Source: a virus
Reading direction: 5' to 3' (one strand)
Length of the DNA stretch: 16,685 bases
Virus genome (UHGV): UHGV-0121436
The stretch's first letter is position 1. The number at the start of each line of letters is the position of its first letter. The notes below the pieces were generated by a model. It was not told the origin of the DNA, searched no databases, and saw only the letters and a list, made by a program, of their open reading frames with translations. Made by a program: the position numbers and the translations under genes. This document shows positions 1,031-13,673 of the stretch, piece by piece.

Positions 1031-1246
1031 TTAGGCGCAGATATAAAAGCAAAAATTATCGCGAGTTTTTAGTACAGATTTTTTTGATTTACTAATAGTT
1101 CCATCATTGCAAACGAACTTTCCATCGGAGGTACAGTGAGAGACACCTCCCTTTTTCCCAGAACAAGGATAATTTTTAGCATAGGTAGTTAGTGGGTTTA
1201 ATAACAAAGAGCATGATAAAACCACAAAAAATACCTTACCAAGCAT
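1031..1246 (-). CDS. Small secreted cysteine-containing protein (71 aa), unknown function; cargo between repressor and integrase
   Basis: ORF with strong RBS (GGGAGGAAACT) just upstream of ATG 1246. N-terminus [23 protein letters not shown] looks like a Sec signal peptide; the roughly 48-aa mature part has 5 Cys. AT-rich. It starts 16 nt downstream of the repressor stop, on the same strand. Confidence 0.5.
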
Positions 1247-1261: not shown

Positions 1262-1831
1262 TTACCTAACGTACTTAATTGTTAAACTTATAATTTTTCC
1301 AATTATTTCAACATCTTCTATCTTGCACTCGAAGGATCTGTTTCCACCTTCAACGAAGATTCTTCCACCGGGTAAACGAGTAATGTCGCGGATTGTTATT
1401 TCGCCATCAATACTTATTACCCATTTACCATCACGTATATCATCAAATTCTTTATCACAAATAAATTCAGAATTGTTATCTGTGATGACAAAAGGTTTTT
1501 TAAACGTAGAGGGTAGAAATCCCTTATCAAAAATATAAAAACCGTCTTCACGCAAGGCACCATCAGATAATACATATTTAGCAACTTCCATCGTATTTGT
1601 ATTACCTGAAGTTTGCTTTGAACCATGTCCAGTTGTGAGCCAATTAAGCGAGGTGCCCGTTTCAAGGGCGCACTGGATTACCCATTCTGCTGGGAATGAG
1701 TCACGCATGTAGCGTGTGGCGAGTGTACTTTTAGAGATTCCTAAATGATCGCACAACGCCTGTCGAGTTTTGAATCCATAAGCTTCTACCATGCGCTCTA
1801 TAGCGCCTCGTCCGCCTTTCTCCAAATTCAT
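1262..1831 (-). CDS. cI: Phage immunity repressor (CI/C-like) with N-terminal HTH
   Basis: ORF on minus strand; ATG at 1831 preceded by GGAG at 5-nt spacing (the track's GTG at 1837 is an alternative start). N-terminal region ERMVEAYGFKTRQALCDHLGISKSTLATRYMRD is HTH-like and resembles the phage CI-repressor N-terminal domain. It is divergent from the early operon, as in P2/186. Confidence 0.8.
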   Translation of the reverse strand: MNLEKGGRGAIERMVEAYGFKTRQALCDHLGISKSTLATRYMRDSFPAEWVIQCALETGTSLNWLTTGHGSKQTSGNTNTMEVAKYVLSDGALREDGFYIFDKGFLPSTFKKPFVITDNNSEFICDKEFDDIRDGKWVISIDGEITIRDITRLPGGRIFVEGGNRSFECKIEDVEIIGKIISLTIKYVR

Positions 1832-1855
1832 GGTCACTCCAAGTGAACTTTTATC

Positions 1856-1956: not shown

Positions 1957-2115
1957 ATGAGACCTAACATTTCAATCACTCTTACCACGCCTCATGTGAC
2001 TATTGAACGCTATAGCGAGCTGACAGGGCTATCCATCGATACCATCAATGACATTTGGCTGATGGACGCCTTATCCGTCACCGTCTGCGCAAAGATAAAA
2101 AACGCGAAAAAGTGA
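1957..2115 (+). CDS. Apl/Cox-like small HTH protein (excisionase / repressor of lysogenic promoter), 52 aa as read; possibly frameshifted
   Basis: First ORF of the rightward operon: MRPNISITLTTPHVTIERYSELTGLSIDTINDIW..., with an HTH-like segment. Position matches P2 cox / 186 apl. Shorter than the roughly 87-91 aa I recall for those proteins; see the finding on a possible frame change. Confidence 0.5.
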   Translation: MRPNISITLTTPHVTIERYSELTGLSIDTINDIWLMDALSVTVCAKIKNAKK

Positions 2116-2209
2116 TGATCAACATAGCAGCCATGACCGTTGATGCGCTTTCAGAATGCAATCTAAACCTTAATTAGTTCGATTCTGAAATACATCAGAG
2201 GCATTGACC

Positions 2210-2719
2210 ATGTTTGATTACCAAGTTTCCAAACATCCACATTTTGATGAAGCCTGTCGTGCATTCGCATTGCGCCACAACCTGGTGCAACTGGCAGAAC
2301 GTGCTGGCATGAATGTGCAGATTCTGCGGAACAAGCTGAACCCAGCTCAGCCTCATTTATTAACCGCACCAGAAATCTGGCTGCTTACCGATCTGACTGA
2401 AGATTCAACGCTGGTAGATGGTTTTCTGGCACAGATTCACTGCCTGCCATGTGTACCGATTAATGAGGTGGCAAAAGAGAAACTGCCACATTACGTCATG
2501 AGTGCAACCGCAGAGATCGGGCGTGTTGCTGCAGGTGCGGTATCTGGCGATGTAAAAACCAGTGCAGGTCGTCGTGATGCTATCAGCAGCATTAACTCTG
2601 TAACACGACTGATGGCGCTGGCTGCTGTTTCATTGCAGGCCCGTTTACAGGCTAATCCTGCGATGGCGAGTGCAGTTGATACCGTGACTGGCCTCGGTGC
2701 TTCATTCGGTTTGCTGTGA
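2210..2719 (+). CDS. cII: CII-like lysogeny-establishment transcriptional activator (186 CII-like), 169 aa
   Basis: ATG 2210 with AGAGG 9 nt upstream. Translation [24 protein letters not shown]...[25 protein letters not shown] closely resembles what I recall of coliphage 186 CII (same length class, same N-terminal motif). Second gene of the early operon. Confidence 0.7.
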
Positions 2720-2726
2720 GGTGCTT

Positions 2727-2927
2727 ATGCTGACGAAAGAACCATCATTTGCATCGCTGCTGGTAAAACAAAGCCCGGCAATGCACTACGGTCACGGCTG
2801 GATCATGGGTGAGGATGGTAAACGCTGGCATCCGTGCCGTTCACAAGATGAATTGCTGGCAGAACTATCTACGAAAAAACGGGGGAACAAATGGCTATTG
2901 AAGGCGCTGCGGCGACTGTTCCATTAA
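2727..2927 (+). CDS. Hypothetical early-operon protein (66 aa)
   Basis: ATG 2727 with GAGG 5 nt upstream, immediately after the cII stop. Same strand, tightly packed. No recognisable motif. Confidence 0.5.
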   Translation: MLTKEPSFASLLVKQSPAMHYGHGWIMGEDGKRWHPCRSQDELLAELSTKKRGNKWLLKALRRLFH

Positions 2928-3232
2928 GCCCCGGTGAACGCCTGAATGGACTTAATCACATAGCGGAATTAAGGGCAAAAGTTTTTGGCCTGAATATTGA
3001 GTCAGAGCTTGAGCGGTTTATTAAAGATATGCGTGATCCTCGGGATATCAATAATGAACAAAATAAACGGGCACTGGCTGCCATATTCTTTATGGCAAAA
3101 ATTCCGGCTGAACGTCATAGCATCAGCATCAATGAGCTGACCACTGACGAAAAGCGGGAGTTGATTAAAGCAATGAATCATTTTCGTGCAGTGGTGAGCT
3201 TATTTCCCAGACGGCTAACCATGCCGAATTAA
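2891..3232 (+). CDS. Hypothetical early-operon protein (113 aa)
   Basis: ATG 2891 preceded by GGGGGAA; overlaps the previous ORF by 37 nt. No recognisable motif. Confidence 0.5.
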   Translation: MAIEGAAATVPLSPGERLNGLNHIAELRAKVFGLNIESELERFIKDMRDPRDINNEQNKRALAAIFFMAKIPAERHSISINELTTDEKRELIKAMNHFRAVVSLFPRRLTMPN

Positions 3233-3299
3233 CCAACTAATGAAATTAATGGCGTAAACCCGCCGGGCATCCCTTTATCTAAATTCAGGAGAATTGATT

Positions 3300-3533
3300 A
3301 TGCGTAATATTGAGATCCTCACGACTAAAACCGGATCGGATGATGCAGGGCTTAATATTTTACTGACAGTGGCTCGTCTGGAAGAACGCCGGGCAAGGGC
3401 TGAAGCAATGGCAGCTCGCCTTGATAGCCTGGCGTGTCATATCTCATCCCGTCAGCTAAACCACGTGGAAGCAGCAGAACTACTGCGTGTAACTGCTGAA
3501 GCAATCCAGAACGAAGCGCAGGAGATCCACTAA
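3300..3533 (+). CDS. Hypothetical early-operon protein (77 aa)
   Basis: ATG 3300 with AGGAG 8 nt upstream. Its stop TAA overlaps the start of the next gene (TAATG). Confidence 0.55.
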   Translation: MRNIEILTTKTGSDDAGLNILLTVARLEERRARAEAMAARLDSLACHISSRQLNHVEAAELLRVTAEAIQNEAQEIH

Positions 3534-3760
3534 TGGCTGATGCAATGGATCTCGTACAGCAGCGCGTTGAAGAAGAACGCCAGCGCCATATTCGTGCTGC
3601 CCGTGCCAAAACACCGGGCGTGTCTCGCGTGCTTTGTATTGAATGTGAAGCGCCAATTCCGCCAGCACGACGCCGCGCCATTCCGGGAGTGCAGCTTTGC
3701 ATTACCTGCCAGGAAATCGCAGAGCTGAAAGGCAAACATTACAACGGAGGTGCTGTATGA
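3533..3760 (+). CDS. TraR/DksA-family C4 zinc-finger protein (P2 orf82-like)
   Basis: 75-aa product with CIECEAPIP...(18 aa)...CITCQ, a four-cysteine zinc-finger arrangement typical of phage TraR/DksA-like proteins. Translationally coupled to the flanking genes. Confidence 0.75.
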   Translation: MADAMDLVQQRVEEERQRHIRAARAKTPGVSRVLCIECEAPIPPARRRAIPGVQLCITCQEIAELKGKHYNGGAV

Positions 3761-4614
3761 GCACCATCCTGAAATGGGCGGGAAATAAAACCGCCATTAT
3801 GTCCGAACTGAAAAAACACCTTCCTGCTGGCCCGCGACTGGTTGAACCTTTCGCGGGTTCCTGTGCTGTGATGATGGAGACGGATTACCCCAGCTATCTG
3901 GTTGCGGATATTAATCCTGATTTAATCAACCTCTATAAAAAGGTTGCCGCTGATTGTGAATCGTTTATATCTCGCGCCAGAGTTTTATTTGAGATCGCAA
4001 ACAGGGAGGTGGCTTATTACAACATAAGGCAGGAGTTTAATTACTCCACTGAAATTACTGATTTCATGAAAGCGGTATATTTCCTGTATCTCAATCGTCA
4101 CGGTTACCGTGGTTTATGTCGCTATAACAAGAGCGGGCATTTCAACATTCCCTACGGTAATTATAAAAATCCGTATTTCCCTGAAAAAGAAATTCGCGCA
4201 TTTGCAGAAAAGGCCCAGCGAGCAACGTTTATCTGCGCCAGCTTTGATGAAACGCTGGCGATGTTGAAGGCGGGGGATGTGGTGTATTGCGATCCGCCGT
4301 ATGACGGTACGTTTTCCGGCTATCACACTGACGGCTTCACTGAAGATGACCAGTATCACCTGGCATCTGTTCTTGAACATCGGTCATCAGAAGGACATCC
4401 GGTCATTGTTTCTAACAGTGACACATCCCTGATCCGTTCGCTGTATCGCAATTTTACTCACCACTACATCAAGGCAAAACGCAGCATCGGTGTGGCAGCT
4501 GGCGAGGGTAAATCAGCAACAGAAATCATTGCTGTTTCCGGGCCGCGCTGCTGGGTGGGATTTGATTATTCGCGTGGCGTGGATAGTTCTGCCGTGTACG
4601 GAGTACGTGCATGA
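3757..4614 (+). CDS. dam: DNA adenine methyltransferase, D12 class (Dam-like, probably GATC-specific)
   Basis: ATG 3757 with GGAGG upstream; start overlaps the preceding stop (ATGA). Translation has [16 protein letters not shown] (SAM-binding motif I-like), [17 protein letters not shown] and the catalytic DPPY motif (VVYCDPPY). Strong resemblance throughout to E. coli Dam as I recall it. Confidence 0.85.
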
Positions 4615-7025
4615 GTCATGCCGATATGAACAACTGCTGCGGCTTTAACGAGGCTGCCGCAGCATTCTCATGGAACAGCCCGAAAAAGGCCATTAACCCT
4701 TATCTGGACCCGGCGGAAGTTGCGCCGGTTTCTACGCTTTCAAACCTGATCACTCTGTACGCTGCCGATAACGAGCAGGAACAACTGCGCCGCGAGGCAC
4801 TGAGTGATCAGGTCTGGGAGCGTTATTTCTTTAATGAATCACGTGATCCTGTCCAGCGCGAAATGGAGCAGGATAAGCTCATTAGCCGGGCAAAGCTGGC
4901 GCATGAGCAGCAGCGTTTTAATTCAGACATGGTCATTCTGGCGGACGTCAACGCCCAGCCTTCCCATATCAGCAAGCCGCTGATGCAACGTATTGAATAC
5001 TTCAGCAGCCTGGGCAGGCCAAAGGCTTATTCCCGCTATTTACGTGAGACGATTAAGCCATGTCTGGAACGACTGGAGCATGTACGCGACAGTCAGCTAT
5101 CTGCATCTTTTCGCTTTATGGCAAGCCATGAAGGGCTGGACGGCCTGCTGATCCTGCCTGAAATGAGTCAGGATCAGGTGAAACGCCTGTCCACCCTGGT
5201 AGCTGCGCATATGAGTATGTGCCTTGATGCAGCTTGTGGTGATTTGTATGCCACCGATGACGTTAAGCCAGAAGAAATCCGCAAGACATGGGAAAAGGTG
5301 GCAGCGGAAACCCTGCGTCTGGATGTCATCCCACCTGCGTTTGAGCAACTCCGTCGGAAAAGAAACCGCCGTAAACCCGTGCCCTATGAACTCATTCCGG
5401 GTTCGCTGGCGCGTATGTTGTGCGCCGACTGGTGGTATCGGAAATTATGGAAGATGCGTTGCGAATGGCGGGAAGAGCAGTTGCGCGCTGTTTGCCTGGT
5501 CAGCAAAAAAGCATCTCCTTATGTCAGCTATGAAGCCGTGATGCATAAACGTGAGCAGCGCCGTAAGTCGCTGGAGTTTTTCCGTTCTCATGAACTGGTG
5601 AACGAAGACGGCGACACGCTGGACATGGAGGATGTGGTAAACGCCAGCAGCAGCAACCCTGCGCATCGCCGCAATGAGATGATGGCCTGTGTTAAAGGTC
5701 TGGAGCTTATCGCGGAAATGCGCGGTGACTGCGCCGTTTTCTACACTATCACCTGTCCGTCGCGTTTCCATTCCACGCTAAATAACGGCAGGCCAAACCC
5801 GACCTGGACAAACGCGACGGTAAGACAAAGCAGCGATTATCTGGTCGGCATGTTTGCTGCATTTCGTAAGGCGATGCACAAAGCCGGGTTGCGCTGGTAT
5901 GGCGTGCGGGTGGCTGAGCCGCATCATGATGGCACAGTTCACTGGCACCTGTTGTGTTTCATGCGCAAAAAAGACCGCCGTGCCATCACTGCATTACTGC
6001 GTAAGTTTGCCATCCGTGAAGACCGCGAGGAGCTGGGCAATAACACTGGGCCGCGCTTTAAGTCTGAGTTGATTAACCCGCGCAAAGGAACGCCGACAAG
6101 CTACATCGCGAAATATATCAGTAAGAACATTGACGGTCGTGGTCTGGCTGGCGAGATCAGCAAGGAAACGGGTAAATCTCTGCGTGATAACGCTGAATAC
6201 GTGAATGCCTGGGCGTCTCTGCATCGTGTTCAGCAATTCCGCTTCTTTGGTATTCCGGGGCGTCAGGCTTACCGTGAACTTCGCTTGCTGGCTGGTCAGG
6301 CGGCAAGGCAGCAGGGTGACAAAAAAGCAGGTGTGCCGGTACTGGATAACCCGCGTCTTGATGCCATTCTGGCTGCTGCTGATGCTGGTTGTTTTGCCAC
6401 CTACATCATGAAGCAGGGCGGCGTACTGGTTCCCCGTAAATATCACCTCATCAGAACCGCTTATGAAATCAACGAAGAGCCGACCGCCTATGGCGATCAC
6501 GGCATTCGTATTTATGGCATCTGGTCACCCATTGCAGAGGGCAAGATCTGCACTCATGCAGTGAAGTGGAAAATGGTTCGTAAGGCCGTTGACGTTCAGG
6601 AGGCGGCAGCCGACCAGGGCGCTTGCGCCCCTTGGACTCGTGGCAATAACTGTCCCCTTGCTGAAAATTTGTACCAACAAGGGAAAGACAAATCAGCTGA
6701 TGGGGATACCAGAACGGATATCACCCGCATGGATGACAAGGAATTGCACGATTACCTGCACAGTATGAACAAAAAAGAGCGCCGGGAACTGGCTGCAAGG
6801 TTACGCCTGGTGAAACCGAAACGGCGTAGAGACTACAAACAGCGAATTACAGATCATCAGCGACAGCAGCTCGTCTATGAACTGAAGTCCAGAGGATTTG
6901 ATGGCAGCGAGAAAGAGGTCGATTTACTCCTTCGCGGCGGCAGCATTCCGTCAGGAGCAGGCCTGCGTATTTTCTATCGGAACCAGCGTTTGCAGGAAGA
7001 TGATAAGTGGCGGAACCTGTATTAA
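4611..7025 (+). CDS. A: Replication initiation protein A (rolling-circle nicking endonuclease, P2 gpA-like), 804 aa
   Basis: Large ORF whose start overlaps the dam stop. Contains a histidine-rich [11 protein letters not shown] segment (HUH-type metal site) and [12 protein letters not shown] (candidate catalytic Tyr region). Size and position match P2/186 gene A. Confidence 0.9.
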
Positions 7026-7119
7026 TTACGCGGGTTAACAATTCGTGCTCTTAATAATACCAGGTATATCAGGCTGATGAACGTAAAAAAACGTTTTACA
7101 TCAGTAAGATTATTATATA

Positions 7120-7135
7120 CTGTAAATATAAACAG
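7120..7135. promoter_or_regulatory. LexA (SOS) operator, perfect CTGT-N8-ACAG
   Basis: CTGTAAATATAAACAG at 7120..7135 matches the LexA box consensus CTGT-(AT-rich N8)-ACAG. It lies in an AT-rich promoter-like stretch 44 nt upstream of the ORF starting at 7179. Confidence 0.6.
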
Positions 7136-7178
7136 TGGTTATGCGTACAGTATTGCTTGTGGTGTCATAGGAGGAAAG

Positions 7179-7367
7179 ATGCAGGACTATTTTTTGGAGT
7201 CTTTGAAGCTCCAGCGCATTGATTTTTTTCTTAAGCTTGTAGCGGCTAGTGAGTGTAGTGATGAAGAGAAGGGGCTGGCCCTGCAGTGGGTTTCTGAACT
7301 GACAGATGAACTCATGGCAAAAATCAGAACCCACGAATACAACCGCTCAATGGATGTCATCAGCTGA
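7179..7367 (+). CDS. Small protein (62 aa) in the LexA-controlled module; possible Tum-like antirepressor N-terminal part
   Basis: ATG 7179 preceded by AGGAGGAAAG. Acidic, helical-looking product MQDYFLESLKLQRIDFFLKLVAASECSDEEKGLALQWVSELTDELMAKIRTHEYNRSMDVIS. Sits directly upstream of the DinI-like ORF. Confidence 0.45.
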   Translation: MQDYFLESLKLQRIDFFLKLVAASECSDEEKGLALQWVSELTDELMAKIRTHEYNRSMDVIS

Positions 7368-7377
7368 GGTGACTTTT

Positions 7378-7611
7378 ATGCGCATTGAAATAATGATCGA
7401 TAAAGAGCAGAAGATTAGCCAGTCTACCCTGGACGCCCTTGAATCCGAGCTTTACCGCAATCTGCGCCCCCTGTATCCCAAAACGGTAATTCGCATTCGC
7501 AAAGGTAGCTCTAACGGTGTGGAACTGACCGGACTGCAACTGGACGAAGAAAGGAAGCAAGTGATGAAAATTATGCAGAAGGTGTGGGAAGACGACAGCT
7601 GGCTGCATTAA
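7378..7611 (+). CDS. DinI-family protein (77 aa); Tum/DinI-like SOS-regulated modulator
   Basis: MRIEIMIDKEQKISQSTLDALESELYRNLRPLYPKTVIRIRKGSSNGVELTGLQLDEERKQVMKIMQKVWEDDSWLH aligns by eye with E. coli DinI (MRIEVTI..., DAL..EL, W..D.W C-terminus). GAGG RBS 8 nt upstream. Confidence 0.7.
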   Translation: MRIEIMIDKEQKISQSTLDALESELYRNLRPLYPKTVIRIRKGSSNGVELTGLQLDEERKQVMKIMQKVWEDDSWLH

Positions 7612-7682
7612 GAAACGTTGCCCCCAAGAGGATTCATTCTGATGGGGGACTATTTTGGGCAACGAGTGAAACGAGGCGTTAG

Positions 7683-7720
7683 GTGGACGGCCATTTTGAT
7701 AAGTGATCGTCCGCTTTTTG
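7683..7720 (+). terminator. Possible intrinsic terminator after the DinI-like gene
   Basis: GTGGACG (7683..7689) pairs with CGTCCGC (7708..7714), one G-U pair, followed by TTTTT (7715..7719). The loop is large (18 nt), so this is weak. Confidence 0.3.
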
Positions 7721-7898
7721 TTCTGAGTTCAAGCGATGGATTTAACACACTGGTTGAAGCAGAAGTATCTAAGTTCAATTTATATTATTTGAAGGGCACT
7801 GGTCTGATGTAGTACGATTTTTGCCGGAGATGGCATGTTCTATATTGATCTCATCCATATAATGATTGGTATTATTAGCTTAGTTTAAAGAGGATTGA

Positions 7899-9476
7899 AT
7901 GGATATCAACTATGTTGTTTCAAAAATGGGGTTCGTAGATGATCTTATTAATGCAGGTTCATTTGATTCTGCCTATAAAAATGTAAAGGATATTCTTAAC
8001 GGTATCGATGAGATAAATACAATCAAAGAAAATAGAATAATTATATTATCTAATTTGGCCGGAAATCTTATTGATATCGGAAGTTTTAGTAATGTAAAAA
8101 ATATAGCGGAGGAAGGCTTAAATATCTTTATAAACAATAAAAATGAATTTCTGACTATAATGAAAGAATCCTTATATTACTATAACTTGGCAAATGGAAT
8201 GAGCGCAGTTCTTGATTTTAATCCTAATGACAATGCAGATATTGATAGTTTCATTAAGCTGAATGATGTAAAAAATAATTACTGGAAAGCGTTTAAACTT
8301 TCACAAGAAGATGGATGGGTGCCCCCTGATTTAATAGTTAATCTAGCTAATGTATTAAAAAAACAATATCGTATATCTGAATCAATGGATTATTATGAAC
8401 AAGCAATATCTATTGATAACTCAATTCCTCAGGCGTGGGTAAACAGATCTGAGGCATTAGAATTGCTTAATGAATTATCTACAACATATACATATAAAAT
8501 GATTAAAGAAGTTATTCGAGGTTATGAGTGTGCAATAAAGTCAGGGAAATGTTTTCCTTCATGGAAGGTTGCTCTTCAAAGAAAAATAAAGTACAACGAA
8601 AGTATATTGAGTGAATCATGTGTATATGGCATAGAGGATATAAGTACAGATGAAAGGCTCACGCAGGAGGAGTATGATACTTTATCAAACTACCAGAGGT
8701 TTTGTATAGATAATAATCTAATGTTGTCTGATCATTCGCTATATTGCAATTGTTATGCGTCATCTAAAGATAATATAACTATTGCTACCACCGAGGAAGG
8801 TGTGTTTGGTGATTTTATAGTGCCAATGGAAATGGTGTTAAATAGACTTAAAGCAGAGTATTCCTTAGCACGAAAAATGTTTTTTGAATATAAGGTTGAT
8901 AGTGAGTTTTTTGATGAGGATTCGGAGGTATGTTATTCTGAATTGTATAATGGAGAAATATTGTATGAAAATGTTGAGAAGTTAAGGGTTGCATTTAGAG
9001 CTTGCTTTGGTATCTTGGATAAAATAGCAGTTGCTCTGTGTCAATTATTTGATTTAAAACCAGATAGAGGACATATATACTTTCATAACTTCTGGCGGAT
9101 TAGTGATGAAAAAAGAAAGCTTAAAATAAACAAAATAAATAATAAAGGATTGCTGGGTTTGTTTAGTATTGCTATGGATTTGAATGATAAAAATGGTGAG
9201 CTTGCTTTTTTTAAAGAATGGAGGAATGATTTAGAACATAAACTGTTAGTTATTCACGAGAAAGACATGTTAGTTGATTTATATAATTCTTATGGATTTT
9301 TTGATGAGGTGAGATTTATTGAGAAAGAAAAGTTTGAGAAACAGCTCTTACAACTCATGAAAATTGTGAGATCAGCCGTTATTCTTTTTGTGTTTACCAT
9401 ACGTATAGAGGGGAAAAAAAGTATTCCTAAAGATATGTTGACCATTAAAAATACCATCGAGAGAAAAGTATTGTAG
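7899..9476 (+). CDS. AT-rich 525-aa protein with N-terminal TPR-like helical repeats and C-terminal HEPN-like region; candidate anti-phage / abortive-infection effector
   Basis: Uninterrupted ORF with AGAGGA RBS before ATG 7899. Visibly much lower GC than the flanking phage genes (by eye; not computed). TPR-like segment around YYEQAISIDNSIPQAWVNRSEALELLNEL. C-terminal R-x4-H (RNDLEH, nt 9222..9239) and R-x5-H (RGHIYFH) fit the HEPN R-x4-6-H signature. No Walker A motif seen. Located in the P2 tin/old-equivalent position. Confidence 0.75.
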   Translation: MDINYVVSKMGFVDDLINAGSFDSAYKNVKDILNGIDEINTIKENRIIILSNLAGNLIDIGSFSNVKNIAEEGLNIFINNKNEFLTIMKESLYYYNLANGMSAVLDFNPNDNADIDSFIKLNDVKNNYWKAFKLSQEDGWVPPDLIVNLANVLKKQYRISESMDYYEQAISIDNSIPQAWVNRSEALELLNELSTTYTYKMIKEVIRGYECAIKSGKCFPSWKVALQRKIKYNESILSESCVYGIEDISTDERLTQEEYDTLSNYQRFCIDNNLMLSDHSLYCNCYASSKDNITIATTEEGVFGDFIVPMEMVLNRLKAEYSLARKMFFEYKVDSEFFDEDSEVCYSELYNGEILYENVEKLRVAFRACFGILDKIAVALCQLFDLKPDRGHIYFHNFWRISDEKRKLKINKINNKGLLGLFSIAMDLNDKNGELAFFKEWRNDLEHKLLVIHEKDMLVDLYNSYGFFDEVRFIEKEKFEKQLLQLMKIVRSAVILFVFTIRIEGKKSIPKDMLTIKNTIERKVL

Positions 9477-9798
9477 TATATTTTCATCGAGCGATGAAAC
9501 GGTCTGTTTTTCTTTATAGTTTTGTCATAAAAAAGAGATTTCCTGCTTAAAATTTGGCTATTACAGAGCAACTATGTATGTTCCTCGCTCACAGTAGAGC
9601 TTCATCTTTGTAAGTCTGTATGTTTCGTTTTTCAAGTGGTCATTCAGATACGGACTTTCACTTCTCTTAGACAGTGCATGACTATGCTGCATGAAATCGC
9701 ATGATCGTTTAAGGATCGTTTTTGCTAAGGCTCGCCAGAACTAGCGGGCTTTTACGTAGAACATGCAGGTGCATGAAAACCACTACATAAAGCGGGCA

Positions 9799-9817
9799 GG
9801 CGTGGCGGGGATACGAG
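9799..9817. other. Probable cos site (cohesive-end sequence of P2/186-type phage)
   Basis: GGCGTGGCGGGGATACGAG: the first 12 nt match the 19-nt cohesive end I recall for 186 (GGCGTGGCGGGGAAAGCAT) and it is close to that of P2 (GGCGAGGCGGGGAAAGCAC). It lies upstream of the portal gene 3' end, as expected, in a GC-rich non-coding patch. Confidence 0.45.
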
Positions 9818-10030
9818 CGCGCGCAAAGGGGTTAAATGGCAAAAATCCGGCGCAATCTTCTGCTCGCTGTCGGCTTTAATTGGTGAGGGGGAGGGAATAG
9901 GCGCAAAAAAGAAATGCCCCGCAGAATGCGATCTATACACGCAGAATCGCGGATAACTCTTAAGCTATGATTGACGTACAATTTTACAGGAAGTATTAAA
10001 GTCTCATGTTCATTTTTTCAGGATGATGAC

Positions 10031-10807
10031 ATGTTAGCTGGTACGCGAAGTGCGACGAACGGAAAGGTTTTTGCTAAAGACTGCGAAAAAGAAGAAGGGC
10101 CATTTTTTTGCATTGGATGCAAAAAAGAATTGGTTTTAAAGAAGGGGCGAATTAAAGTTCATCACTTCGCCCATAAGCCCCCGTTTTCTTGCAACAGAGG
10201 TCATGGGGAGACTGAAAAACACCGAGAATGCAAAGAATCTATGTATAACTTGTTGCTTTCAATGCCGAATGTTAGAGATGTTGACATAGAGCATGATCTT
10301 GGTAGTGCTGTAGCTGATGTGTATGCTGTGATAAACAATGTTCCAGTCGCTATTGAAGTACAACGCAGCATTCTTTCCGTAAATGAAATAACAAGACGCA
10401 CCAAAGAATATCATCGTTTAGGTGTACATGTGCTTTGGCTTTCACTGTTCAGCACGCGACTTGTAGAAGATCGCTTTAGCCCATCAGCGTGGGAAAAGTG
10501 GTGTCATGCTACCTATTATGGCAGGGTATATTATTGGCTTTCTGGATTGGATGTGATCCCATATCATTTTTCTGACTATAAATTATATGTTGAAGAAAGT
10601 ACATGGTACGAGTCGGGTGGAAATGAGAGAAGCGCAGGTGGATACTATAAATTTTCAAAACGTTATAAAACGCCACTCGCTGGGCAAAGAGTAAATATAG
10701 CGGAAGACTTTTCGCCTAAAAGAAAAGCAGCATGGAATAGTAAGACTATTTATATACCAGAATGTAGTATTTATTTGGATGGACAGTCAGCGTGGTGGAG
10801 TAAATAA
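10031..10807 (+). CDS. CoiA-like protein (putative PD-(D/E)xK-type nuclease with N-terminal Cys/His cluster), 258 aa
   Basis: ATG 10031 (the track's TTG at 9971 is less likely). Translation has CIGCKKELVLKKGRIKVHHFAHKPPFSC, GETEKHRECKE, ADVYAVINNVPVAIEVQRSILSVNEITRRTKEYHRLGVHVLWL. This order of motifs (C-x2-C...HFAH...GE-x3-H...ADV...AIE-x-Q-x-S...LG-x-VLW) is what I recall for the competence protein CoiA family. Moderately AT-rich; lies between cos and the portal gene. Confidence 0.7.
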   Translation: MLAGTRSATNGKVFAKDCEKEEGPFFCIGCKKELVLKKGRIKVHHFAHKPPFSCNRGHGETEKHRECKESMYNLLLSMPNVRDVDIEHDLGSAVADVYAVINNVPVAIEVQRSILSVNEITRRTKEYHRLGVHVLWLSLFSTRLVEDRFSPSAWEKWCHATYYGRVYYWLSGLDVIPYHFSDYKLYVEESTWYESGGNERSAGGYYKFSKRYKTPLAGQRVNIAEDFSPKRKAAWNSKTIYIPECSIYLDGQSAWWSK

Positions 10808-10814
10808 GAATTGT

Positions 10815-10858
10815 TAATATAAATTCAGCAGCAATTGCTGCTGCATTTATTATATTAA
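10815..10858. terminator. Bidirectional intrinsic terminator between the convergent CoiA-like and portal genes
   Basis: Perfect 18-nt palindrome CAGCAGCAATTGCTGCTG (10826..10843) flanked by A/T-rich runs on both sides. It sits exactly between the stop of the plus-strand ORF (10807) and the stop of the minus-strand portal gene (10855). Confidence 0.55.
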
Positions 10859-11910
10859 CCGTTGTGCTTGTCTTCTGTCAGTCCCAGCGTGTACGGTTCA
10901 AAGCGGATCACTTCTTCGCCCAGCCACTCGTTAAGCTCCTGTAGTCGCTTCTGCAGCGGCATCAGCTCGTTGCGGACAAAGACGCGGCTGGCCTTTTCTA
11001 CATCACCAAAGCCGCCGGTATTGTTGGGAATAATGCCCATCATTTGTGGTGGCACGCGGTGTGCTGCCATCATGTCATCGCGGCTGACATTTTTGATATT
11101 CAGAAATTCATCCTTCGCCGCAACTTCTGACAGAGGAATGATCTGAAGCCCGTCCTTTTTGCCGTTAGGCGAGTACATAAACAGATTGCGGAAGTTGCCA
11201 GGGCCTTTGGCGCTTTTCATCGCATTGCGGAGGTTGTTCACATCCTCCTGGTTTTGCGCGGCATCGGTCATGTACATGATAAAGCCCGCATGACTGCCGT
11301 TAATGTAATATTTGCGTCGGAACAGCGTGGCGGACTCGTTGAGCAGGGCTGACGGAATGGCAGAAAGATAACCGGGCAGGCCGTAAATCTCCTGGTTGAT
11401 ATCCGGTTCCATCAGATGAAAAATGCTGCCTTTCGTGAACTGATACGGCTGGGTTGTCATACCGTATTGCACAAACCAGTAGGTATCCAGGTCTAACCCG
11501 CGTCGGGTGTATTTTGCCAGCGCAGGCTCAAGGGCGATAACTTCACCGAAGCGGTTCGTGCGTTTCTCCAGGTAGGCGTTACCAAATACCAGGTAGTCCT
11601 GCACAAAACGTGAAAAAGCCTGCTGGCTGAGCAGCGGGTGAGGGATATAGGTACTGGTCAGAATGTTGCACTTTACTGCAATCGGGGAACTGTGATGCAC
11701 GGCAGCGCGGAAGGTGCGCGCCAGTCCGTCAAAGCTGACGGGCGGCTCATACCAACGGTCCATCTGTACGCATTCCACATAGTCCAGTAATTCTCGGCGG
11801 TCCAGAACAGGAACGGGATCGCCGAAGCTGAATGCTTCGGCTGTAGTTTGACTTTTAAGCTGGATCTGATTCGTCGCCGCAGCGCGGTTCTTCTTACTCT
11901 TTCCCATCAA
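10855..11910 (-). CDS. Q: Portal protein (P2 gpQ-like), 351 aa
   Basis: Minus-strand ORF starting MMGKSKKNRAAATNQ...; size, position next to cos and adjacency to the terminase ATPase gene match P2 Q. Its start overlaps the stop of gene P (ATGA). Confidence 0.88.
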   Translation of the reverse strand: MMGKSKKNRAAATNQIQLKSQTTAEAFSFGDPVPVLDRRELLDYVECVQMDRWYEPPVSFDGLARTFRAAVHHSSPIAVKCNILTSTYIPHPLLSQQAFSRFVQDYLVFGNAYLEKRTNRFGEVIALEPALAKYTRRGLDLDTYWFVQYGMTTQPYQFTKGSIFHLMEPDINQEIYGLPGYLSAIPSALLNESATLFRRKYYINGSHAGFIMYMTDAAQNQEDVNNLRNAMKSAKGPGNFRNLFMYSPNGKKDGLQIIPLSEVAAKDEFLNIKNVSRDDMMAAHRVPPQMMGIIPNNTGGFGDVEKASRVFVRNELMPLQKRLQELNEWLGEEVIRFEPYTLGLTEDKHNG

Positions 11911-13673
11911 AAAATCTCCACAATATTGCTGGCATTGGCGGATTCGCCCTGCAGCGGTTCGTTAAACAGTGCGTGCATCGTTGCCCAGGCCAGATCGGCG
12001 TGGCTGGCTTCTTCGCTGCGGCTGGCTTCATAGGTCGGGCGGTTGCCGCTGGCGGTGGTAGCGCGACGGATTGCCATAAATGATTGCGCAATGTCGGTGT
12101 GCCCGGCGTCAAACTCCAGACGGCGGTGGCTGATAATGTCGTAGGCCTTGAGCACCAGGGCGTTTTTAACGTTGGGGTTGTAGACAAACTCCCGGACGGC
12201 AGGAAAGAATGCTTTCACGTTCTCGTAAACCCCGTGACCAACGCCGGTTGAGTCGATACCGATATAAGTCACGTTGTACTGTTCGGTCAGTTTTTTGATG
12301 GCGTCAGCCTGGGCGCGGAAGTCCATCCCGCGCCACTGGTGACGCTCAAGAATGCGGAATTTACCGCCCGGTACGGCTGGCGGTGCCACCACCACGCATC
12401 CGGCACTGTCGCCGTTCTGAGTACCTTTTGCGGGGTCATAACCGATCCATACTTCGCGCCAGCCAAACGGGCGCAGGGCCAGTGCATGAAAGTCGGTCCA
12501 GACTTCCCAACTGTCCACCATGCACGCCTGCAGTTCGCTGAGCGGGAACACGGACGCGAGATCGTCCACGAACTCACACATCAGCAGGTTCTGGTATTCG
12601 TCCGGGCTGTATTCCATGCGCAACTGGTCAAGGTCGAACAGGTTACAGCCGCCGCGCACCGCATCTTCCACGGTGACTATCTGGCGGTATTGTCCGTCTG
12701 CGCACAGCAGGCCGGGGGCCAGATTGCTGTGGGACAGGTCGATGTCCACCTTATCGGCTTTGTTGCGCCCACGGTTGAACAGCGCACCGGACCAGAACGG
12801 ATAAGCACTGTGTGTCAGGCTGGATGGCGTGGAAAAATAGGTCTGTCGCCATTTTTTGTGAATAGCCATACCGGAAGCCACTTTGCGCAGCTCCTGGAAT
12901 TTCGGTATCCAGAAATATTCATCCAGATACAGGTTGCCGTGATAACTCTGGGCCGTGCGGGCATTGGTGCCGAGGAAGTAAAGCGTGGCCCCGTTAGGAA
13001 GCACCATCGGATCGCCTTTCAGCTCCACCTCCACTTCTTTGGCGAAGTCGATGATGTACTGCTTAAAGACGTGGGCCTGTGCCTTGCTGGCGGAAAGGAA
13101 AATCTGGTTACGTCCGGTAAGCAGAGCGTCAATCAGGGCTTCACGGGCAAAGTAAAAGGTCGCGCCGATCTGGCGTGACTTCAGCAGGTTGCGGATGCGG
13201 TTGGTTTTTCCGGCTTCCCACCAGTGGCGCTGGTAGTTGAACATGAAGGAATGGAAGATTTCTTCCAGCTTCTCAATCTGCTCATCGGTGAAAACATTCT
13301 TTTCCGGCTGACGGCGCGGGCCTTTGTTGCGGTTGGCGACGTTAGGGTTTAAGTCGGCTTCGTTGCCGCCATTGTTAAACTTGCCGATCCGCGCGTGGCG
13401 TTCCGACTGGCGCGCCAGCAGGTCAATCTCTTTGAAATCTTTCCCTTCTTTGTGCTCCTTCATAATGAGCTGGCAGTAGCGTGCGGCGGTGGTGAGCTGC
13501 ATCTGATCCAGCGGCCCATAGTCACCCCACTTGTCGCGTTTTTTCCAGCTGTGAACGGTTGCAACTTTCTCGCCCAGCATTTCAGCAATGCGGGCTACGC
13601 GGTATCCCTGAAAGTACAGCAGCATGGCCTGCCGACGGGGATCGAGATCTGCGGGTGTCAGTGTGGTGTTCAT
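11907..13673 (-). CDS. P: Terminase large (ATPase) subunit (P2 gpP-like), 588 aa
   Basis: Long minus-strand ORF, divergent from the O-N-M-L cluster across a 142-bp intergenic region, as in P2. Length and organisation fit gpP. Confidence 0.88.
   Translation of the reverse strand: MNTTLTPADLDPRRQAMLLYFQGYRVARIAEMLGEKVATVHSWKKRDKWGDYGPLDQMQLTTAARYCQLIMKEHKEGKDFKEIDLLARQSERHARIGKFNNGGNEADLNPNVANRNKGPRRQPEKNVFTDEQIEKLEEIFHSFMFNYQRHWWEAGKTNRIRNLLKSRQIGATFYFAREALIDALLTGRNQIFLSASKAQAHVFKQYIIDFAKEVEVELKGDPMVLPNGATLYFLGTNARTAQSYHGNLYLDEYFWIPKFQELRKVASGMAIHKKWRQTYFSTPSSLTHSAYPFWSGALFNRGRNKADKVDIDLSHSNLAPGLLCADGQYRQIVTVEDAVRGGCNLFDLDQLRMEYSPDEYQNLLMCEFVDDLASVFPLSELQACMVDSWEVWTDFHALALRPFGWREVWIGYDPAKGTQNGDSAGCVVVAPPAVPGGKFRILERHQWRGMDFRAQADAIKKLTEQYNVTYIGIDSTGVGHGVYENVKAFFPAVREFVYNPNVKNALVLKAYDIISHRRLEFDAGHTDIAQSFMAIRRATTASGNRPTYEASRSEEASHADLAWATMHALFNEPLQGESANASNIVEIF

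Follow-up and report, generated by a model that had tools for sequence, protein, structure and literature searches.

A short CoiA-like protein encoded as exchangeable cargo beside cos in a 186-like prophage

Introduction

The DNA analysed here is a stretch of 16,685 nucleotides from the virus genome UHGV-0121436, referred to below as the window. It spans the junction of the early and late regions of a 186-like (P2-family) prophage. Between its cos site and its portal gene there is a gene of the forward strand (10031-10807) that codes for a protein of 258 amino acids plus stop. Its sequence places this CoiA-like protein in a distinct short CoiA-like family, in which the zinc finger and catalytic core of the competence protein CoiA are followed by a different third domain. 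The gene and its domains are established, as are the conservation of the catalytic residues, the nuclease fold, the nature of the gene as variable cargo and the fact that known defence genes use the same slot. The function that we favour is that of a stand-alone structure-specific endonuclease, made in the lysogen, which would cut intermediates of incoming phage or mobile DNA; we rate the chances of this proposal as about even.

Domain structure of the CoiA-like protein

An earlier note, made from the letters of the window alone, assigned the protein to the CoiA family because of five motifs, and predicted a zinc-binding N-terminus and a PD-(D/E)XK-type nuclease. All five motifs are present, in the order that the note gave: C27-x2-C30, H44-H-F-A-H48, G59-E60-x3-H64, A95-D96-V...A107-I-E109-V-Q111-R-S113 and L130-G-x-H-V-L-W136. 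A profile search, as the note had proposed, gives scores above the cutoff both for Pfam CoiA_N (residues 20-55, 45.4 bits with a cutoff of 26.3, E-value 5.8e-12) and for CoiA_nuc (PF06054; residues 60-138, 41.6 bits with a cutoff of 20.3), the latter match covering only positions 1-79 of the 158 in the model.

Invariance was scored in an alignment of 31 homologues, which are 48-84% identical. The N-terminal C2H2-type zinc finger (residues 20-55, 10088-10195, forward strand) has C27, C30, H44 and H48 invariant. A profile of the family matches classical C2H2 fingers in the PDB, and the sequence search of the PDB with the family found nothing beyond C2H2 zinc fingers. The PD-(D/E)XK nuclease core follows (residues 59-139, 10205-10447, forward strand), with E60, H64, K68, E87, D96 and E109-x-Q111 invariant across the homologues. 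The candidate catalytic residues, on the same strand, are E60, D96 (10316-10318), E109 (10355-10357) and Q111 (10361-10363). The AlphaFold model of the protein has a PD-(D/E)XK fold, with a predicted local distance difference test score (pLDDT) of 91.5. The modelled fold, the Pfam matches and the invariant residues all agree, and bear out the nuclease core and the N-terminal zinc finger of the earlier note. The metal-dependent nuclease core of the CoiA type is intact and conserved in the window protein.

The rest of the protein (residues 140-258, 10448-10804, forward strand) is a β-rich C-terminal domain, which is strongly conserved, has no structural relative and is particular to the short CoiA-like family. 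These 119 residues were also modelled by themselves. The invariant residues here are W154, E155, W157, H159, R165, H179, C245, D250, W255 and W256. A profile of the domain finds only 367 clusters (at 50% identity) in 1.84 billion proteins. In the full-length matches listed, the domain is at approximately residues 140-260, and the shorter entries look like fragments. Longer variants also occur, and all ten of those that were checked retain the same zinc finger and/or nuclease N-terminus in front of the C-terminal domain.

The zinc ribbon (residues 10-55, 10058-10195) also gives weak matches to the N-terminus of the Druantia protein DruB (PADLOC, E-value 0.005) and to Pfam DUF7830. A zinc module of the CoiA_N type is the 'CoiA domain' of the defence protein PD-lambda-4B, and it may be that this module recurs in defence proteins.

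Relationship to true CoiA

The NCBI pipeline already labels the gene as 'competence protein CoiA' (WP_117255857.1). As a reference for true CoiA we used a Listeria gene that lies beside an open reading frame judged from its translation to be MecA-like. A search with Listeria CoiA returned 14 proteins, so that the true-CoiA profile is narrow and Listeria-centred. Listeria CoiA has CoiA_N, a full CoiA_nuc and CoiA_C (180 bits). It shares 30% identity with the window protein, but only over residues 20-156 of the latter. Alignment with the Listeria-centred profile using hhalign gives a probability of 99.4% over residues 19-155 and ends at residue 155, and residues 140-258 align with the rest of CoiA with a probability of 0.2%. 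Pfam finds no match to CoiA_C in the window protein, nor a complete CoiA_nuc.

Within the shared part, D96, E109 and Q111 align with Listeria CoiA D103, E113 and Q115, and D96 and E109 are the equivalents of D95 and E105 of pneumococcal CoiA, both of which are essential (Hardy et al.; bioRxiv 10.1101/2024.02.06.579203). The setting is that of enterobacterial prophage cargo, and not of a competence regulon. Since two of the three CoiA domains are missing or incomplete, and the biological context is not that of CoiA either, the protein is not classed as CoiA. The family assignment made in the earlier note therefore holds for the zinc finger and nuclease core (residues 19-155) but not for CoiA as a whole, the C-terminal part being unrelated.

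The gene is a self-contained cassette

The program-called open reading frame runs from a TTG (9971-10807). We place the true start at ATG 10031, because there is a Shine-Dalgarno sequence AGGA (10020-10023, forward strand) 7 nt upstream, and because the homologues in the 31-sequence alignment all begin with M-L at this residue. A promoter-like site was found by eye at 9971-9999 on the forward strand, consisting of a -35 hexamer TTGACG (9971-9976), a 17-nt spacer and a -10 hexamer TATTAA (9994-9999). The consensus promoter scan did not report it, as the last T is missing from the -10 hexamer. It may be the promoter of the CoiA-like gene.

The gene is followed by a two-way intrinsic terminator (10813-10859), common to the CoiA-like gene and the convergent portal gene. 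Its GC-rich core hairpin (10826-10843) has a predicted energy of -19.6 kcal/mol (z = -4.6), with A/T runs on both strands, as expected from the bidirectional terminator described in the earlier note. The G+C content of the gene is approximately 40%, compared with 52-60% in the flanking late genes. With its low G+C, its own ribosome-binding site and its terminator, the CoiA-like gene is a self-contained cassette. A scan of 7000-11200 against Rfam found no RNA family, and a repeat search turned up the terminator alone. Accordingly, nothing points to a retron-type non-coding RNA or to an antitoxin RNA.

The gene is variable cargo of the P2 hotspot

The interval between gpA and gpQ around cos is a published defence hotspot of P2-like phages, in which a large share of the cargo tested protects against phage (Rousset et al., 2022; Vassallo et al., 2022; PMC9122126, PMC9519451). 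More than a thousand gene arrangements are already known for it. The CoiA-like gene occupies this position: the replication endonuclease gpA is at 4611-7025, the cos core starts at 9799, and the portal gene (a gpQ/W homologue, Pfam Phage_portal) is at 10855-11910 on the reverse strand and forms the right border of the cargo slot. The cos core is GGCGTGGCGGGGATACGAG (9799-9817), which lies within a conserved cos region of 186-like prophages (9673-9929) that is kept in 1277 of the 5426 complete E. coli genomes. Starting from 9799, GGCGTGGCGGGG is the same as the first 13 nt of the annotated 186 cohesive end, and the core was seen again in every P2-like locus examined. The distance from the portal stop to the cos core is 1038 nt, compared with 168-177 nt from the portal stop to the cohesive end in the P2 and 186 reference genomes. 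The insertion of extra DNA between cos and portal suggested in the earlier note is thus real.

The content of the slot was compared in sister E. coli prophages (terminase 99% and portal 93-96% identical in loci L002, L021 and L022) and in the remaining related E. coli prophages, which are 88-94% identical in DNA over cos plus portal. It differs among near-identical prophages. Related prophages have in this position a 120-amino-acid hypothetical gene, three hypothetical genes, genes of the DUF4145, SieB or DUF6953 families, or an HNH endonuclease with uncharacterised genes, and in strain ECCTRSRTH03 the slot holds the reverse transcriptase of retron Ec67, a known defence system. The CoiA-like gene is therefore variable cargo and not a P2 core gene, as the note had supposed. 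The insertion site is in itself not unusual, because the cos-portal slot of E. coli 186-like prophages is usually filled with varying cargo. The portal similarity to most of the related E. coli prophages ends in the last 40-140 nt of the gene, and on the other side the similarity ends approximately 25 nt past the cos core. Exchange of cargo thus seems to occur by recombination within the 3′ end of the portal gene and at cos.

The CoiA-like gene itself is rare, being present in one of the 5426 complete E. coli genomes, or approximately 1 in 1300 E. coli P2-like prophages. The exact protein occurs in 234 blocks of a larger assembly collection. Twenty-four contigs were read, and in all six of the non-redundant places returned the gene is in the same prophage slot.

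Homologues and their genomic contexts

A word-indexed search gave 362 matches to the family, and a pattern search gave 131 matches in 185,579 species genomes. Homologues of 250-265 amino acids, 40-65% identical, occur in Gamma-, Beta- and Alphaproteobacteria, Cyanobacteria, Acidobacteriota, Verrucomicrobiota and other groups. In Proteobacteria the family is carried by prophages, an integrative and conjugative element (ICE), plasmids and islands; homologues are also found on megaplasmids and on a few IMG/VR viral contigs.

Several homologues are in the same setting as the window gene. The cos-portal slot of diverged P2-like prophages holds homologues in Rahnella (64% identical) and Pantoea (60%). 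In Serratia sp. DD3 (locus L009, 8001-9369) a 78% identical homologue has as its neighbour a truncated fragment of a P2-type portal gene (63% identity); also nearby are insertion sequence elements, a TIR_2 gene and a pair of genes for a TacA-type antitoxin and a GNAT acetyltransferase. This locus is a decayed P2-like prophage that has retained the cargo gene. Across the P2-like lineages the cargo protein is 60-78% identical, compared with 63-65% for portal and 68% for terminase, which suggests that the gene has long resided together with the packaging module in one phage sub-lineage.

Elsewhere the contexts are diverse, some of them being toxin-antitoxin or defence-rich islands. In a lambdoid-type prophage of Kistimonas, the homologue lies between nin-like DNA-processing genes and terminase, near GmrSD_N. 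The homologue on the ICE (L018) adjoins VapBC, an AAA_13 ATPase and RES-Xre, and a cyanobacterial homologue adjoins Phd and HicB antitoxins and an HNH gene. In Microcoleus the homologue is at a stable chromosomal position upstream of secA. In 20 species of Pyrinomonadaceae (L063, L064, L066 and 17 other loci, at approximately 2000-8800) the gene is the end of a same-strand block, whose order is SSB, a 335-amino-acid protein, an XPB helicase (XPB_DRD plus ResIII), DUF790/Bax1, and last the CoiA-like gene, with an RNase_T exonuclease and a 160-amino-acid protein as optional members before it. This arrangement suggests a functional link of the nuclease family to the XPB-Bax1 helicase-nuclease pair.

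When the neighbours of 87 non-redundant loci were clustered, no universal partner gene was found, only lineage-specific neighbours. The lack of a conserved partner fits a system of one protein. A scan of 150 open reading frames within three genes of approximately 30 homologues, which had no background control, found AbiEi/AbiEii, ThsB, a Pycsar cyclase with PycTIR, NucC and several PADLOC candidate families, and also methyltransferases, transposases and ordinary housekeeping genes.

Adjacent ATPase genes are seen in a few places. On the ICE (L018, 8776-11130) the gene for the 784-amino-acid AAA_13 ATPase is 4 nt past the CoiA-like gene, and in several Verrucomicrobia (L101, 2437-4203; also L085 and L089) a gene for a HerA/TrwB-like ATPase is the next after it. 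These pairs are possibly two-gene variants that resemble PD-lambda-4, in which an ATPase is combined with a CoiA_N-like protein. The Brevundimonas lytic jumbo phage vB_BpoS-Bambus encodes a distant relative (L020, 3932-4840; 29% identity), with CoiA_N and the first half of CoiA_nuc. The deposited coding sequence of this relative (4313-4840) seems to have been given too late a start, so that the zinc finger and the N-terminus of the nuclease are missing from it.

Proposed function

True CoiA acts as a monomer. It is an endonuclease that nicks supercoiled plasmid, cuts junctions of single-stranded and double-stranded DNA and resolves D-loops made by RecA, the last two activities being known for the pneumococcal protein only (bioRxiv 10.1101/2024.02.06.579203). 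By analogy, we propose that the CoiA-like protein would nick or cleave DNA by its structure and not by its sequence. In this view the gene is an accessory cassette of the 'moron' type, which a 186-like temperate phage carries in its variable hotspot near cos, and the protein would be made in the lysogen from its own promoter. Its targets would be single-strand/double-strand junctions, D-loops and branched intermediates of replication or recombination, such that a superinfecting phage or other invading DNA is destroyed or stalled while the ordinary duplex chromosome is spared. The C-terminal domain might provide recognition of a substrate or partner, or autoinhibition. The suggestion of an anti-phage role comes from the genomic context. 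A wider form of the idea is that the short CoiA-like family is an unrecognised one-protein immune system, spread by prophages, ICEs and plasmids over at least six phyla, which would sense D-loop or junction structures of the invader rather than sequence or modification. We put this forward tentatively, and consider it somewhat doubtful.

A number of observations weigh against an anti-phage function. The family is unusually conserved, with 40-65% identity across phyla, which is atypical of fast-evolving phage sensors. The Pyrinomonadaceae block of SSB, XPB, Bax1 and exonuclease looks more like repair or recombination than immunity, and the Kistimonas homologue is amid DNA-processing genes of the nin-region type. 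A constitutive nuclease with no immunity partner needs a rule to distinguish self from non-self, and none is known here. Since the survey of neighbours had no background control, enrichment of defence genes near the homologues is not demonstrated. A scan with PADLOC v2 gave no convincing match, the one weak hit being that to the N-terminus of DruB (E-value 0.005). It gave no match to PD-lambda-4, for which PADLOC v2 presumably contains a model. Scans of the protein found no match in PHROGs and none of note in NCBIfam. A search of the literature found no description of the short CoiA-like family as a defence system, and no reported phenotype. In the supplements to Rousset et al., the one mention of CoiA is a weak HHpred match for an unrelated gop-beta-cII protein. 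The statement in the earlier note that no CoiA-based anti-phage system had been described is nearly right: the one published 'CoiA domain' in a defence protein is that of PD-lambda-4B (HHpred 93.6%, residues 1-66), and it is the zinc ribbon only (Vassallo et al., 2022).

Other explanations account for some of these observations. The nuclease might serve the phage as an optional fitness gene, acting as a debranching enzyme or resolvase of recombination intermediates like RusA, Rap/NinG or T4 endonuclease VII, that would remove branches from the DNA before it is packaged, or would stimulate recombination. In favour of this are relatives that are resolvases, the nin-like neighbourhood in one prophage, and the long association of the gene with the packaging module. 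We nevertheless think it unlikely, because only about 1 in 1300 of the E. coli P2-like prophages has the gene, unrelated genes (retron Ec67, SieB) take its place, it is convergent to the late operon and closed by its own terminator, and the majority of the homologues are outside phages. A role in repair or recombination of the host, as a case of lysogenic conversion, has a smaller probability still. A structure-specific nuclease for general repair, acting together with helicase-nuclease machines, would be well suited to the SSB/XPB/Bax1/RNase_T block that the gene ends in 20 Pyrinomonadaceae species, to the high conservation across phyla and to the stable site upstream of secA in Microcoleus, but such a role is difficult to reconcile with a rare and patchy distribution (the 131 matches in species genomes and 367 clusters given above) and with the location of the Proteobacterial copies on prophages, an ICE, plasmids and islands.

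It is also conceivable that the gene is a selfish free-standing homing endonuclease, copying itself into the cos-portal junction of P2-like genomes that lack it. This is very improbable: the frequency in the target population of P2-like prophages is very low, the homologues are at many unrelated sites with no common flank, and the strong conservation across phyla and lack of degenerate copies are unlike the usual cycles of decay. Finally, the database name and the zinc finger and catalytic core in common with CoiA would suggest a genuine competence CoiA, promoting natural transformation of the host. The probability of this is close to negligible, and it is already largely refuted by the domains (CoiA_C and the second half of CoiA_nuc are absent), the host and the context. 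True CoiA is confined to Bacillota, where its partner is RadA, while diderm bacteria use YraN and ComM (bioRxiv 10.1101/2024.02.06.579203), and the window gene is phage cargo, outside any mecA-coiA locus. The view of the earlier note that a role in defence or DNA processing is more plausible than one in natural transformation is supported.

The favoured explanation is that of a structure-specific nuclease that would act in conflicts between mobile elements. If the gene is protective, a compact single-gene system of 258 amino acids would be added to the repertoire of the P2 hotspot, the view of the CoiA nuclease as a competence factor of Bacillota only would need to be revised, and the strongly conserved C-terminal domain would acquire its first function. 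If the wider family is indeed an immune system, then the resolvase module of transformation and the immune effector would be two uses of one enzyme core, and the CoiA nuclease would not be confined to Bacillota. If the gene is not protective, the XPB-Bax1 link and the nin-like context point to a wider role of CoiA-type nucleases in the processing of branched DNA. In the protective case, the self/non-self rule could be tested directly on defined DNA structures, because the closest characterised relative cuts D-loops and single-strand/double-strand junctions.

Other features of the window

The left end of the window cuts an integrase gene. Between this and the CI repressor gene (1262-1837, reverse strand) there is a gene for a 71-amino-acid protein with an N-terminus like a signal peptide (1031-1246, reverse strand). 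Sister prophages carry a gene labelled YdcA by Pfam at the same position. This is another small accessory gene. The genes for CII, DUF5347 and a Dam methylase lie between the CI repressor gene and gpA, and DinI is at 7306-7611. Beyond the portal gene are the large terminase gene (11907-13673, reverse strand) and then the scaffold and capsid genes.

Between gpA and cos there is a gene for a 525-amino-acid protein with TPR and an LA2681-type HEPN domain (7899-9476, forward strand; Pfam, 1.8e-38). Its G+C content is approximately 30%, and PADLOC gives only weak TPR and Csx1 matches. The possibility that it forms a two-gene system with the CoiA-like gene was tested and rejected, because each is found without the other: sister prophages with the CoiA-like gene lack the HEPN/TPR gene, and strain ECCTRSRTH03 has the HEPN/TPR gene without the CoiA-like gene, the cos-portal slot there being occupied by retron Ec67. 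The HEPN/TPR gene is a second and independent cargo of the same hotspot.

Comparison with known systems

What is new here is the architecture and the setting in which a CoiA-type nuclease is found; in a hotspot as diverse as this one, it is not a surprise. Like other cargo of the P2 hotspot, such as Old, Tin and retron Ec67, the gene is a small cassette of low G+C in a cos-adjacent locus where genes are swapped between near-identical prophages. It differs from the known hotspot systems in that its family is absent among those described or validated (Rousset et al., 2022; Vassallo et al., 2022).

Of the published defence systems, only PD-lambda-4 is said to contain a 'CoiA domain'; its protein PD-lambda-4B starts with a zinc ribbon like CoiA_N. 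That system is found in E. coli, and many of the systems from the same screen are prophage-borne. PD-lambda-4 however consists of two genes, one for an ATPase, and for PD-lambda-4B there is no report of a CoiA nuclease core, whereas the window gene is alone, with no ATPase gene in the cos-portal interval of the window. Small structure-specific PD-(D/E)XK nucleases (Hjc, VRR_NUC, NucS, DUF820/Uma2 and the nuclease domain of Can2) are 10-18% identical to the window protein, and all of them lack the zinc finger and the C-terminal domain of its family.

The CoiA proteins of Bacillota, such as S. pneumoniae CoiA and B. subtilis YjbF, are composed of CoiA_N (PF25164), CoiA_nuc (PF06054) and CoiA_C (PF25166), and are approximately 320-400 amino acids in length. 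The hosts of the family described here are Proteobacteria, Cyanobacteria, Acidobacteriota and Verrucomicrobiota, in which it is often on mobile elements, as opposed to the competence regulon of Bacillota; and in the window protein, at 258 amino acids, an unrelated domain of approximately 120 residues replaces the second half of CoiA_nuc and the whole of CoiA_C. In both the window protein and CoiA, a C2H2-type zinc finger at the N-terminus precedes a PD-(D/E)XK core whose signature, D...E-x-Q, is atypical.

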